Virus record (IMG/VR): IMGVR_UViG_3300045988_094983
Span: 1 to 37,876 of that record
Origin: a virus
DNA: 37,876 bases
Reading direction: 5' to 3' (one strand)
Below are positions 1 to 7,938 of the stretch, piece after piece. A model generated the notes under the pieces. That model was not told the origin of the DNA. It made no database searches and worked only from the letters and a program-made list of their open reading frames with translations. The position numbers and the translations under genes are program-made. Position 1 is the first letter of the stretch, and each line of letters starts with the position of its first letter.

Positions 1-55
1 GGTTCTGTGCACTTCGATTGGTAGCAATCTCCAACCTACTCTACTCGGTTCGTTA
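1..55. repeat. Terminal direct repeat, left copy (identical to 37822..37876); assembly overlap of a circular or circularly permuted genome
   Basis: Bases 1-55 (ggttctgtgcacttcgattgg...ctcggttcgtta) recur exactly as the last 55 bases. The repeat lies inside the 3' non-coding part of the capsid-gene intron, not at a gene boundary. Confidence 0.9.
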
Positions 56-725
56 CCCTTTCGATAGTCTCTAGACCTTTCCAATAATAACCATAAACTT
101 GTTTATCTCTGTCTTTATATCTACAAATTTGAGCATTATTTGCTTTGTATCCTTTTTTTATTAAAAATTGAACAGCTTCTCCATAAGATTTAAAATATAT
201 TTTTTCTTTATCATTAATTGCCATTACTGGTATTATACGACTTTCACTTATTTTTTTACATATTGTTTTTCTTATTTCTTTATTTTGCCACATTTTTTTT
301 GCTCTTTCACTCGCTCTCTCGTGTGCTTTTTTTAATGCTTTTTCTATATTTGGTTTCCTATGATTATATGCACCATTTCCCCAAGCTCTTTTTACTTTAT
401 TAGATATTTTTTCTCGCACTTTTGGATTATTAACCGTTACGTTTTCTCCTCCATAAGTCATATTATATCCTTTATTATATGTGTCAAATTTTGCTATGTA
501 AAAAATTTCTTTTTCATTTAAATCCTTTTGTTCGATATCATTTTCAATAATCTCAAATTGAAAATTTTCTATACCATATTTTCTCATAGCATTATATAAA
601 TGTGTTTGTATCTTATTGTCTCTTGCATTACATATATGGTCTTTTTTTCTTTTTTTAAAATTTGTTGTTTGTCCTATATAAACTTTTTTATTTATTTTAT
701 TAGTTATTGAATATACACATCCCAT
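36..725 (-). CDS. GIY-YIG homing endonuclease (intron-encoded)
   Basis: 229-aa ORF. The N-terminus VYSITNKINKKVYIGQTTNFKKRKKDH matches the GIY-(10)-YIG motif. The Lys/Arg-rich C-terminal half resembles a NUMOD-type DNA-binding region. GAGGTG RBS upstream of the ATG at 725. Confidence 0.85.
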   Translation of the reverse strand: MGCVYSITNKINKKVYIGQTTNFKKRKKDHICNARDNKIQTHLYNAMRKYGIENFQFEIIENDIEQKDLNEKEIFYIAKFDTYNKGYNMTYGGENVTVNNPKVREKISNKVKRAWGNGAYNHRKPNIEKALKKAHERASERAKKMWQNKEIRKTICKKISESRIIPVMAINDKEKIYFKSYGEAVQFLIKKGYKANNAQICRYKDRDKQVYGYYWKGLETIERVTNRVE

Positions 726-959
726 AATTACACCTCAATGTAATTATACCATTTTTAAAAATATATTGCAACAAACTAATAATAGATTATTATTTTATTT
801 GGCACAGGATTGCCCTTTGTAGTTTGTTTTAGAGGGTTTCCCTGTTAGCAAGATTATTTCAATAGTCATTTCCTACTATATTTTAATCTCACACCCTATT
901 GCAATCTAGGTTCACACAGTTTGCTATATTTATTTCTAAATATAGGAACTATATTGCTA

Positions 960-1233
960 ATTCATTACATGCTTTATGTTTATCAACTAATATTGGTAGA
1001 TAATCTGTTGCTGATTGTGTTAGTTCAACACCATTTTTTACATCATAATCTGATAATGTTATATCACCATTTCTTGTTGGTACTTCAACTGCTCCTGCTG
1101 TTGGATTTCCTTCATAATCTCTACTAAATTCAGCTCTAATGTTGAATTGTTGTCTCATTAATTTTACAATTGCATCTGCATATCTTTCTTGTCTTTTATG
1201 TGTTCCATTTTTTTGTATAACTGTGTTTGCCAT
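960..1233 (-). CDS. Major capsid protein, exon 1
   Basis: ORF 949..1233 (MANTVIQKNGTHKRQERYADAIVKLMRQQFN...) sits directly after the scaffold gene. Its frame runs into a stop a few codons after ...LPILVDKHKA. The donor is placed after the U at 960 by an in-frame splice model. Confidence 0.7.
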
Positions 1234-1253
1234 TTAAAATCATTCCTTTCTTT

Positions 1254-1790
1254 TTAAAAATCAATGTTAGGGTGTTTAGATTTTAATATTGCCATAACCC
1301 CATCATCTTCATTTGATTGTGAAGTAGTTCTTGTCTCTACTCCTGTGGCTTTACTAGGAACAGTTTTATTTAAAAATTTAGGATTATCTTTTAAAAACTT
1401 ATTTAGGTTTTCTTCAAAATCTCCTTCCATTTTTGATACTTTAAATAATACATAATCTGTATCTTCTGCATTAACTCCAGATTTAAGTATTTTATTTTCA
1501 TTTATTATTTGTTCTTTTTCTGCTAATGCTTTTTGATATTCTGTTTCCTTTTCAGCCATTTTTTCTTGTTCTGTTTTTTGAGCTTCTTTCCATTCATTAT
1601 ACTTTTTCAATTCTTCTTTGCTAGGCATATCTTTTTTTGCTTTTGCAAGTCTTGTTTCTACTATTGTATTTAACTCTTCTTGAGTGAATGTTTTTTGCTC
1701 TTGTCCTCCATTTTCTTGAGTGTTAGTAGTTGGAGTTGCTACGTTGTTTTCTTTGTTTTCTTCCATTTTAAATCCTTTCTTTAAAGTCAT
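1254..1790 (-). CDS. Head scaffolding protein
   Basis: 178-aa acidic coiled-coil protein (EQEKMAEKETEYQKALAEKEQ) immediately upstream of the capsid gene. The better RBS (AAAGGA) serves the internal ATG at 1766 (MEENKENN). Confidence 0.7.
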   Translation of the reverse strand: MTLKKGFKMEENKENNVATPTTNTQENGGQEQKTFTQEELNTIVETRLAKAKKDMPSKEELKKYNEWKEAQKTEQEKMAEKETEYQKALAEKEQIINENKILKSGVNAEDTDYVLFKVSKMEGDFEENLNKFLKDNPKFLNKTVPSKATGVETRTTSQSNEDDGVMAILKSKHPNIDF

Positions 1791-1876: not shown

Positions 1877-2011
1877 CTATTTGCTCTGACACTCTTGGTG
1901 TTCTTCTATTTTATTTATTTTTTTACATCTATTGCATATTATTTCTATTATTCCAAAGTAATTTCCTTTGAATAATAATTTATTGCAATGTTTACAACGG
2001 TATTCTTTCAT
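1877..2011 (-). CDS. Com-like zinc-ribbon protein (Mu Com family), 44 aa, below the ORF-track size cutoff
   Basis: Hand translation gives MKEYRCKHCNKLLFKGNYFGIIEIICNRCKKINKIEEHQECQSK. It has the C-x2-C...C-x2-C spacing and the RCK.CNKLLFK...EI.C.RC pattern recalled from phage Mu Com. Confidence 0.6.
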   Translation of the reverse strand: MKEYRCKHCNKLLFKGNYFGIIEIICNRCKKINKIEEHQECQSK

Positions 2012-2043: not shown

Positions 2044-3274
2044 TTACATCTTTGCAACATTTATACGTTTATATCCAACTACACTAGCTCTAGTCTTTAA
2101 TTGATTAGGTAGTCCACTTACAGTACATAATTGCTTATACTTTGTTGTTAATTGTGTTATTTTTGTTTGTGCTTGTAATGTTAGTTCTTTATCTCCACTT
2201 GATTTTGCTAGTATTTGTACATCTTTTTGTTCTCTTATTCTTCTTTCAATCAATCTTTGAAGTTGTGTGCCTTGATACATACTGAAGTGTTTTCCATCAA
2301 AATCGAATCCATCATTATTTTTTTCTTTTATTTCTTCTAACTGTTCTTTTGTATAAAGTGGTTTGCTTATTCCTAACACTATTCTAAATGGTCTATGATA
2401 ACAATTATATTCTGAAATAGGTCTGTAATTACCTTTGTAATGTATATCTATTATCTCGCCATTATAATCTTTTGCTATTCCTGTTTCTTGTAATTTTTCA
2501 AATTCTTTGTTACTAAATTGATGTCCGCTGAACATTTTCATGGTCAACTGCAGGATATTGATGTACTGATATTTCGACTCCATCTGAGTCAAACTCTTCA
2601 CCAAATTGTTCTTGTACTTGATTATTTAGCTTTCTTAATCCTCCTAATGTATTCATTCTTATTGCACTGTCTAATCTCATATTTCTGCCACTTTCATAGT
2701 CTAATGTTTTTAGTCCACTTTGTCCAATTTGTTTTATTGCCTTTCTCATTTCTTGTTGATAAGTAGTTTTCCCTTGTCCAACATTCAATATTGCTTTATC
2801 TATTATGTCTTTATATGTACTTGATATATCTTTAAATACTAAATTTCCTTTTAAGTCTTTAACAGTATATCCTATTGCACTTGTCCTTGATATATTAGCA
2901 TATTCTTTTGCTGTTATCTTTGCTATTGCTTTTATTTGCTCTTTTAAGGCTTTATTTTCTGCATAAGGTATATAACTTATCCCTTTTGCTTTATAAAACT
3001 GTTTAGCAAAATCTTGGTTCGTTTTAGCACTATATTCAAACATATTGTATATATCATTTACATTCATATTTGTTACTTCTGCTAATTTCTGCACAATTGT
3101 ATTTATATCTGTATTATACATTAACATTTGTTTTATTTGATGTACTTGCGTTGGTGTTAATTCTTCTATTTCTTTTATTCTCTTACCTATTATTGTTAGT
3201 ATATCCTCATTTAATGTGTTTATTCTATCTATTAATATTTGTACTAGCTTTTCTTCTTGCTCATTATTTAACAT
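2044..3274 (-). CDS. Head morphogenesis / minor capsid protein (SPP1 gp7 / Mu F-like), 409 aa only if a +1 shift occurs at the CGG codon 2525-2527
   Basis: ORFs 2513..3274 and 2044..2604 overlap. Skipping the C at 2527 joins ...ISVHQYPAVDHENVQ to GHQFSNKEFEKLQ..., restoring the H..P.H...QG..F motif of this family. The gene follows the portal gene. Confidence 0.75.
2525..2527 (-). other. Recoding site 1: in-frame CGG (context CAG-CGG-A); zero frame stops 4 codons later
   Basis: Codon-by-codon reading of both overlapping ORFs. Confidence 0.6.
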
Positions 3275-7864: not shown

Positions 7865-7938
7865 TGGCTGGAGAACCTAGATTCGAACTAAGAACCTTGG
7901 AATCAAAATCCAATGTGATACCATTTCACTATTCTCCA
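7865..7938 (-). tRNA. tRNA-Gln (anticodon UUG)
   Basis: 74 nt. Acceptor stem TGGAGAA/TTCTCCA (U1-A72 as in bacterial tRNA-Gln). D arm GTGA/TCAC. Anticodon stem TTGGA/TCCAA with loop TTTTGAT. T arm CTTAG-TTCGAAT-CTAGG. Discriminator G and encoded CCA. Confidence 0.85.

Follow-up and report, generated by a model that had tools for sequence, protein, structure and literature searches.

What interrupts the major capsid gene of the viral contig IMGVR_UViG_3300045988_094983 from IMG/VR (all 37,876 nucleotides (nt) of the record were analysed, and are called the window here), and could a single capsid protein still be made from it? An earlier annotation of the same DNA, made from its letters alone and referred to here as the original prediction, had suggested a group I intron, about 1 kb long and with a GIY-YIG homing endonuclease gene inside. 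Judged by sequence, the insert is very probably a mobile subgroup IA group I intron that splits codon Leu92 of the major capsid gene; the phage itself is an uncultured, siphovirus-like one from the gut. Four observations carry this reading: the insertion is exact by comparison with intron-less alleles, the insert contains a conserved core that can be folded, it shares homology with certified group I introns, and its endonuclease open reading frame (ORF) is intact.

Window bases 1–55 are identical to bases 37822–37876, a 55-bp overlap that the original prediction had correctly taken as the mark of a circular contig, with a unit of 37,821 bp. Read on the minus strand and across the circular junction, capsid exon 1 (1233..960) is followed by an insert of 1,028 nt (959..1, then 37821..37753) with G37753 as its final base, and then by exon 2 (37752..37172). 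The features of the locus are as follows.

960..1233, minus strand: capsid exon 1, 274 nt, from Met1 to the first base of codon Leu92; matches the intron-less alleles L014–L016 up to gene position 276.
1..959, minus strand: putative intron nt 1–959, with the 5′ core, the endonuclease ORF, P7, P7.1, P7.2, P3′ and the start of P8; absent from intron-less alleles, and 100% identical in L017–L020.
37753..37821, minus strand: putative intron nt 960–1028, with the rest of P8, J8/7, the P7 3′ strand, P9 and the terminal G37753; truncated match to the Rfam group I model RF00028, including GAUAUAGUCC.
37172..37752, minus strand: capsid exon 2, 581 nt including the stop, opening with the UA that completes Leu92; matches intron-less alleles back to gene position 275.
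36..725, minus strand: GIY-YIG homing endonuclease gene, 229 amino acids (aa); Pfam, PHROG and I-TevI alignment.
743..771, minus strand: promoter-like site, TTGCAA, 17-nt spacer and TATAAT with an upstream TG (extended −10); consensus match only.
37822..37876, no strand: assembly overlap, a copy of window 1–55; exact match.

The descriptive claims made earlier for the two capsid pieces were all correct. The minus-strand ORF at 949..1233 encodes 94 aa with the C-terminus ...LPILVDKHKACNELAI-stop, and its product matches the PHROG major head protein family phrog_267 (E=6e-19). The exon 2 frame, open from 37762 down to 37172, reads SNVIDGYEAEAVPDNLKAQRMESAGY, beginning SNVIDGYEAEAVPDN..., with no Shine-Dalgarno sequence seen on inspection of its 5′ end and a first ATG only at 37699. 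The non-coding flanks of the endonuclease ORF, put at about 235 and 105 nt, measure 234 nt on the 5′ side and 104 nt on the 3′ side, and the insert does end in G.

A feature that spans the two ends of its contig could reflect an artefact of assembly or circularisation that joined unrelated sequence, and a 55-bp overlap is a typical assembler residue. This is refuted by four independent assemblies (L017–L020) in which the whole of exon 1, intron and exon 2 is internal to the contig, with the intron 100% identical, and by eight more contigs carrying a related intron, described below; an artefact can be dismissed for practical purposes. The exact 229-aa endonuclease protein was listed on 13 contigs in the cluster table, and 18 carrier contigs were read in an exact-protein look-up; in the protein collection the 94-aa, 175-aa and 229-aa proteins were each present on 13 contigs.

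The position of the insert was established from capsid genes that lack it. A search with the predicted spliced protein returned 1,905 relatives, the best of which were uninterrupted 284-aa proteins with 99% identity (P0001, P0002); at the junction the uninterrupted 284-aa capsid proteins read KACNELIDGYEAEA, in the wider context ...VDKHKACNELIDGYEAEAV.... Intron-less alleles from other metagenomes (L014–L016) shared 96–97% DNA identity and 99% protein identity with the window capsid, and at the insertion point their DNA reads ...CATAAAGCATGTAATGAATTA|ATAGACGG..., that is, ...GAATTA|ATAGAC.... Relative to this junction the window contains exactly 1,028 extra nt, with a placement uncertain by 2 nt (‘TA’), giving three possible placements. 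Group I introns are preceded by U at the 5′ splice site and have G as their last base. In one placement of the three, the exon ends in U and the insert in G, and the frame is restored; the donor was set after U960 and the acceptor after G37753 because this is the sole placement that obeys the U/G rule. These are the sites modelled in the original prediction, now supported to the nucleotide, and the 284-aa spliced product that it derived from them (...KACNE-L-IDGYEAEAV) is borne out by the uninterrupted proteins. The heptamer ATGTAAT does occur at both junctions, as it had reported (970..964 and again at 37755..37749). The ambiguity of site that it drew from this repeat does not persist, since the three intron-less alleles narrow the boundary to 2 nt and the U/G rule settles the remainder; the exon alignment to uninterrupted relatives that it had advised was therefore sufficient, with L014–L016 and that rule, to fix the junction. 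The predicted RNA junction is ...AAU GAA U|UA AUA GAC..., i.e. ...AAUGAAU|UAAUAGACGG, in which codon Leu92 is rebuilt, and the predicted spliced capsid of 284 aa has the peptide ACNELIDGYEAEAVPDNLK across the junction.

Translation continuing from exon 1 would meet a UAG after three codons of the insert, whose length of 1,028 nt is not divisible by 3. An intein or other translated insertion was excluded on these two grounds and on the endonuclease's possession of its own start codon and ribosome-binding site. Few stretches of the capsid protein are as conserved as the one that takes the insertion (E91, L92 and D94–A98 are invariant in 17 aligned sequences), and conserved stretches are the usual choice of homing elements (PMC2504315).

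The same arrangement might arise if the capsid were truly split by a free-standing endonuclease cassette, its halves being translated apart and assembling non-covalently, with no splicing. Essential genes split by intervening endonuclease genes are present in T4-related phages, and in every public assembly of this locus the gene callers give two ORFs, of 94 aa and 175 aa. For exon 2 to be translated alone, however, it would need a start, and its 5′ end has neither start codon nor Shine-Dalgarno sequence; initiation at its first ATG would lose 18 residues, including the invariant block D94–A98. The boundaries of the insert, moreover, follow the U/G rule and the frame is restored exactly. The nature of the flanks bears on the same question, spacer being expected around a free-standing cassette and ribozyme core within an intron.

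Helices P1 to P9 of a subgroup IA ribozyme can be folded in the insert, and all the helices listed are fully paired, upholding the original prediction of a group I intron with an ORF in a loop. Intron nt p corresponds to window position 960 minus p for p≤959, and to 37821 minus (p minus 960) beyond. The elements of the model, with the basis of each, are given in intron order.

946..963, minus strand: P1, exon GAAU (963..960) and UA (nt 1–2) with UA (nt 9–10) and the guide GUUC (nt 11–14; 949..946); pair table, minimum-free-energy fold.
924..945, minus strand: P2, 9-bp hairpin with a GAAA tetraloop, nt 15–23/28–36; pair table, minimum-free-energy fold.
913..919, minus strand: P3 5′ strand CUGUGUG, nt 41–47; 7/7 pairs with 11..5.
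848..910, minus strand: extra hairpins between P3 and P4, A at nt 50–53/62–65 (910..895) and B at nt 68–75/105–112 (892..848); comparison, minimum-free-energy fold.
804..845, minus strand: P4 (845..840/809..804, nt 115–120/151–156) and P5 (836..833/816..813, nt 124–127/144–147); RF00028 match.
787..803, minus strand: 5′ strands of P6 (GCC, 803..801) and P6a (AAUAAUAA, 794..787); pair with 77..75 and 90..83 across the ORF.
75..90, minus strand: 3′ strands of P6a (UUAUUAUU, 90..83) and P6 (GGU, 77..75); pair table, helix map.
45..71, minus strand: P7 5′ strand G(A)GACU (71..66) with a bulged A, then P7.1 (64..45); 35–38 nt identity to RF00028-positive introns.
16..36, minus strand: P7.2 hairpin GGUUGG/CCAAUC, nt 924–929/939–944; covariation in relatives.
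5..11, minus strand: P3 3′ strand UGCACAG, nt 949–955; pairs with the P3 5′ strand.
37799..37821, minus strand: P8 hairpin, nt 956–961/977–982, running on from window 4..1 across the circular junction; RF00028, minimum-free-energy fold.
37787..37798, minus strand: J8/7 with the 3′ strand of P7, AUGAUAUAGUCC (the conserved ‘S’ element); aligns with AAGAUAUAGUC in the RF00028 consensus.
37762..37784, minus strand: P9 hairpin, 7 bp, nt 997–1003/1013–1019; RF00028, minimum-free-energy fold.

P1, which contains a U960–G949 wobble and the in-frame stop UAG at 951..949, was found together with P2 in the minimum-free-energy fold of a 49-nt segment (z=−4.2; 0/200 shuffles as good). Both extra hairpins, P8 and P9 were likewise recovered in minimum-free-energy folds; P4/P5, with A-rich J4/5 and J5/4 junctions, were not recovered when their segment was folded in isolation. 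P6 (nt 157–159/883–885) is continued by P6a (nt 166–173/870–877), which encloses the ORF (nt 235–924), and the same P6a arrangement is seen in PMBT8 and Satyr (13-bp and 16-bp P6a stems around their ORFs). P7, the proposed guanosine-binding helix, is G(A)GACU/AGUCC (nt 889, 891–894/990–994, with A890 bulged), and the terminal G is nt 1028. P7.1 (about nt 896–915) and P7.2 lie between P7 and P3′, a subgroup IA trait, and appear as an insert at the same point in the alignment to the intron of Erwinia phage MIF8. From that alignment the P7 5′ strand G(A)GACU was placed inside the last endonuclease codons, so that the last ~55 nt of the ORF overlap P6a′, P6′, P7, P7.1 and the first base of P7.2. 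A candidate P7 5′ strand in the AACGAAC downstream of the ORF was rejected, the MIF8 alignment putting P7 inside the ORF 3′ end.

Comparison with relatives showed pairing to be maintained by compensatory change. In P3 the pairs are kept despite two-sided differences from 0305phi8-36, Satyr, MIF8 and PSTCR6 (CUGUGUG/UGCACAG here, CCUUGUG/CGCAAGG in 0305phi8-36, CCUAGUG/CGCUAGG in Satyr, CCUGGUG/CGCCAGG in MIF8), and at the third pair of P7.2 the U-A found here is replaced by A-U in 0305phi8-36 and by C-G in PMBT8. A MAFFT alignment of the 3′ halves was out of register in the hairpins, and was used neither for pair counts nor for a covariance model. The positions of the extra hairpins are common to introns of Bacillus, Staphylococcus, Lactobacillus and Streptococcus phages, and the region containing them showed about 80% blastn identity to Javan271 and Satyr.

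Homology to other introns was detected by several routes. When compared by blastn with GenBank phages, the non-coding flanks were matched only where a gene is interrupted. DNA polymerase genes were hit in JSE, PSTCR6 and the Lactobacillus phage Satyr, recA in Bacillus phage 0305phi8-36 (its annotation reads ‘interrupted by a mobile intron’) and nrdE in Staphylococcus phage PMBT8; the other hits were td in Proteus phage phiP4-3, which has an I-TevI gene, a tail gene in Javan271 and the terminase region of Acinetobacter phage YMC13. The flanks are conserved ribozyme core and not spacer, contrary to what a free-standing cassette would entail. Across P7-P7.1, 35–38 nt are identical to introns of MIF8, YMC13 and Providencia phage PSTCR6 that are RF00028-positive (72–94 bits); the 38 nt shared with MIF8 are CUAUCGAAAGGGUAACGAACCGAGUAGAGUAGG, between P7 and P3′ (the P7.1/P7.2 region). 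With the P6a loop removed (nt 176–867), the intron aligned end to end with PSTCR6, YMC13a and MIF8 at 72–79% identity (z about 9–11 against shuffles). In E-value mode, L017 gave two co-linear partial matches to RF00028, one each side of the ORF. The first, over P4-P5-P6 (model positions 60–138, 22.3 bits, E=0.0038), aligned ACAGGGAAACCC...GGGCAAUCCUGUGCC to the consensus UGCGGGAAACCC...GGGGUAAUCCGCAGCC (P/Q elements); the second, over P8/J8-7/P7′/P9 (12.4 bits, E=3.4), included AUGAUAUAGUCC against AAGAUAUAGUC.

Several points weigh against a group I intron and are best considered together. The search with RF00028 recommended in the original prediction did not reach the gathering score (50 bits), either on the window or on the contiguous copies L017–L020, a result that would also suit a truly split gene. 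Window 1..1300 gave no group I match in E-value mode, window 37650..37876 gave only the truncated one, of 9.3 bits, and the two partial matches in L017 are individually weak, the 3′ one being non-significant alone. The strands in the covariation table were picked by eye in 5 relatives. P6/P6a is ambiguous, in that RF00028 folds the 5′ strand as a local hairpin, an arrangement in which the ORF would fall in J6/7; the pairing of P7.1 is loosely defined; and two hairpins separate P3 from P4 where RF00028-positive introns have a 3-nt junction.

The missed match on the window can be attributed to the window ends, which cut the intron, and to the ORF, which separates its halves. Controls explain the contiguous copies. 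All four ORF-less relatives passed RF00028 at its gathering score (MIF8 94.4 bits, PSTCR6 71.8, YMC13 78.8 and 96.6), and every interrupted locus tested that bears or adjoins an ORF was missed (L030, the phiP4-3 td; L039, an nrdD from IMG/VR; L021, L022, L023, L025 and L026). It is thus the 690-nt ORF and the extra helices that keep the score below threshold, not a missing core, and failure at gathering was set aside as evidence against an intron. A group II intron was rejected: no group II family matched at the Rfam gathering score on the window or on L017–L020, and the product of the ORF is a nuclease of the GIY-YIG family and not a reverse transcriptase. Neither IMG/VR nor the JGI metagenomes gave a match in exact-pattern scans for the 5′ core, and a scan for the P7.2 pattern found only 0305phi8-36 and one nrdD intron; no ORF-less copy of the capsid intron turned up in these scans.

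Three of the comparison genomes proved to have arrangements of their own. YMC13/03/R2096 (KM672662; L029 1037-1306, 1422-1644) has two tandem RF00028 introns (78.8 and 96.6 bits) directly upstream of the annotated terminase large subunit coding sequence, with no feature there in the record; the terminase gene there probably extends further and comprises three exons. MIF8 (PP700702; L024 1376-1623) has an unannotated RF00028 intron (94.4 bits) between the RNAP2-like gp24 and the hypothetical gp23, which may be exons of one gene. In the Streptococcus phage Javan271 (MK448723; L025 1480-2640) the interrupted minor tail gene appears to hold two sets of group I core motifs, with two P4′-P6-like segments and two J8/7-P7′ motifs, near 2262 and 2575, which suggests tandem or nested introns around an HNH gene.

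The predicted endonuclease (36..725) is, as had been proposed, a GIY-YIG protein with its own ribosome-binding site. Pfam PF01541 matched residues 1–88 (E=2.5e-10, 41 bits against a cutoff of 22.6), PHROG homing endonuclease families matched residues 1–223 (E=1e-30), and the 229-aa protein bears the JGI label ‘group I intron endonuclease’. The closest solved structure was the I-TevI catalytic domain (1MK0/1LN0, E=7e-6), with an Arg and a Glu aligned at I-TevI R27 (1LN0, R27A) and E75 (1MK0, E75A); the motifs VYSI, VYIG and GYN are present. Pfam gave no match, and so no DNA-binding domain, in the C-terminus (residues 93–229). The ribosome-binding site GAGGTG lies at 736..731, 5 nt upstream of the ATG, and the promoter-like site upstream of it matches the consensus at 10/12 positions (L017 2955-2983), with the TG present.

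A second lineage of the intron was reached through a variant endonuclease of the same 90% cluster, which led to eight more contigs (L031–L038) carrying what is termed here a type B intron (e.g. L032 1022-2048). It occupies the identical capsid site and is about 7% diverged overall, and the exon 2 product of its host allele is one residue shorter (174 aa). Divergence between the lineages is unevenly distributed: about 9% in the endonuclease ORF and about 6–7% in the exons, compared with about 3% in the 5′ core (nt 1–160) and 2/161 nt (1.2%) in the 3′ core (nt 868–1028). Substitutions in helices all keep pairs (A-U to G-U in P2 (A30>G) and in P6a; G-U to A-U in P7.2), and one single-base deletion cuts P9 by one pair. 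The type B endonuclease differs at 26/229 residues, mostly conservatively, and in neither lineage is the ORF truncated. Such a distribution is consistent with selection on both the RNA core and the protein. That the 3′ core should be far more conserved than the ORF or the exons is a further point against a truly split capsid gene, which, with the boundaries, the flanks and the missing start already described, is highly improbable.

The lineages bear equally on whether the element is a decayed, non-splicing group I intron and the genomes defective, as dead phages or prophage remnants. The activity of the intron is here deduced from sequence, and in the same genomes the minor capsid gene is split by one inserted nucleotide that the relative L015 lacks, both of which would be in keeping with decay. 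The element is nonetheless found in complete circular genomes of ~37.8 kb from many independent samples, and two lineages 7% apart both keep every core helix and an intact 229-aa ORF, which would be unexpected without selection; we consider decay very unlikely, and an intron that is still functional by far the better account.

If so, the intron, for which we infer splicing, endonuclease activity and homing, would most likely act in the standard way of a mobile group I intron. A late capsid transcript would comprise exon 1, the 1,028-nt intron and exon 2, and the intron RNA would fold into P1–P9, the guide GUUC pairing with the exon end GAAU so that a U-G wobble forms at the 5′ splice site. Bound in P7, an exogenous guanosine would attack after U960, and the freed exon 1 would then attack after G37753, joining the exons and restoring the 284-aa capsid. 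Ribosomes on unspliced RNA would halt within P1, at the UAG three codons into the intron, and the endonuclease would be made separately, from its own promoter-like site and ribosome-binding site, by the gene in the P6a loop. The I-TevI-like enzyme would presumably cut intron-less capsid alleles of co-infecting relatives, whose repair off the intron-bearing copy would write the intron in (homing).

It is conceivable, by analogy, that the endonuclease serves as a weapon too: besides being a selfish passenger, by cutting the highly conserved capsid target of intron-less co-infecting relatives it might block their virions and favour the intron-bearing phage. Interference competition of this kind is reported for an intron endonuclease of PhiPA3 (PMC11620839). 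Such a contest would be compatible with what gut metagenomes contain, namely coexisting intron-plus and intron-minus alleles (96–97% DNA identity) and two lineages at one site, but we think it rather doubtful here.

Other features of the window lie outside the intron. The minor capsid gene (Pfam Phage_min_cap2; window 2044..3274, minus strand) is represented by two overlapping ORFs, of 253 aa and about 165 aa. The split is shared by L014, L016, L017 and L018; in L015 there is a single ORF of 409 aa. Between L017 452-1682 and L015 961-2190 the sole difference in length is one extra C (...GTTCAGCGGACA against ...GTGCAA-GGACA), which may reflect a genuine frameshift mutation, programmed frameshifting or an error common to these sequences. 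A 44-aa ORF (window 1877..2011, minus strand) that shows a CxxC...CxxC pattern is situated between the genes for the minor capsid protein and the scaffold; its equivalent in L016 has a weak Pfam Zn_ribbon_Com match, and no gene is called there in L014 or L015. The sole Rfam match at gathering score in the window is a tRNA-Gln gene with anticodon UUG (7865..7938, minus strand).

Evidence as to the host is slight. No close relative of the capsid was found by tblastn among cultured phages (best 36%; Clostridium perfringens phages about 29%). Among 185,579 species genomes there was one capsid relative, an intron-less copy with 80% identity on a 10-kb contig (L027, CAMJMP010000019.1) of a metagenome-assembled genome labelled ‘uncultured Tenericutes bacterium’; this is possibly a hint of the host, or possibly a binning artefact.

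The locus has practical consequences for annotation. Gene callers report 94-aa and 175-aa ‘hypothetical protein’ entries where the correct product is predicted to be 284 aa, and capsid-based classification or clustering will miss the marker or mis-size it. RF00028 at its curated threshold misses ORF-bearing phage introns, including a homologue of the T4 td intron, and intron surveys that rely on it will accordingly undercount them. The natural intron-plus and intron-minus alleles and the two lineages could be used in studies of homing or competition. Knowledge of how such elements work is unchanged.

Phage group I introns with GIY-YIG endonucleases are classical, the T4 td intron with I-TevI, its ORF in the P6a loop, being the standard example. 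As in T4 td-type elements, the catalytic domain of the capsid-intron endonuclease aligns to I-TevI; the C-terminal DNA-binding part differs in having no Pfam match. The td intron of Proteus phage phiP4-3 resembles the capsid intron in its subgroup IA layout with P7.1 and P7.2, in an endonuclease ORF that lies inside the intron ahead of P7 and has a 3′ end running into the P7/P7.1 core, in 45 nt at 91% identity across P7-P7.1, and in a score below RF00028 gathering for both. It differs in its host gene (nucleotide metabolism there, capsid here), and the capsid intron has two extra P3-P4 hairpins and no P9.1/P9.2 extension, its short 3′ end comprising 9 nt after P9.

Closer in architecture are introns of Firmicutes phages (0305phi8-36 recA, PMBT8 nrdE, Satyr DNA polymerase III alpha and the nrdD of L039), which share the order of elements including the two P3-P4 hairpins, the GCUAAC lead-in to P4, the GAGUAGAGUA segment, the CGAAG before P3′, and P7.2 with a conserved AGAUU loop, at 74–78% identity over about 80 nt. 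An ORF is likewise found within the introns of PMBT8, Satyr and L039; that of L039 shows the GIY-YIG signature, and those of PMBT8 and Satyr are annotated as hypothetical. In contrast, their host genes are other ones, P1, P2, P8 and P9 are unrelated in sequence, and the ORF of 0305phi8-36 lies upstream of P3 and not in P6a. Tourasse and Kolsto assigned a related B. cereus recA intron to a mixed IA1/IA3 type (PMC2504315).

As regards the host gene, the remark in the original prediction that introns are rare in capsid genes is fair, yet such introns had already been published for the major head protein of the lactococcal phage Tuc2009 and the major capsid gene of mycobacteriophage LittleE, the latter with reverse-transcription PCR (PMC3706429, PMC2504315), and many group I introns are reported in essential genes of gut jumbo phages (PMC12880540). 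Compared by published descriptions, Tuc2009 and LittleE similarly have a group I-type intron in the late structural gene that a siphovirus expresses most strongly, and LittleE shares the U at the end of exon 1, the G at the end of the intron and an endonuclease gene within it (PMC3706429, PMC2504315). The endonuclease of LittleE is, by contrast, HNH/LAGLIDADG-like and on the opposite strand, whereas the one described here is of the GIY-YIG family and on the same strand, and the capsid proteins of both phages are unrelated in sequence to that of the window, to which no GenBank phage has >36% identity. The capsid intron adds a third, well-resolved case of a major capsid gene with a putative group I intron, and represents a further instance of an established kind of element rather than a new kind.

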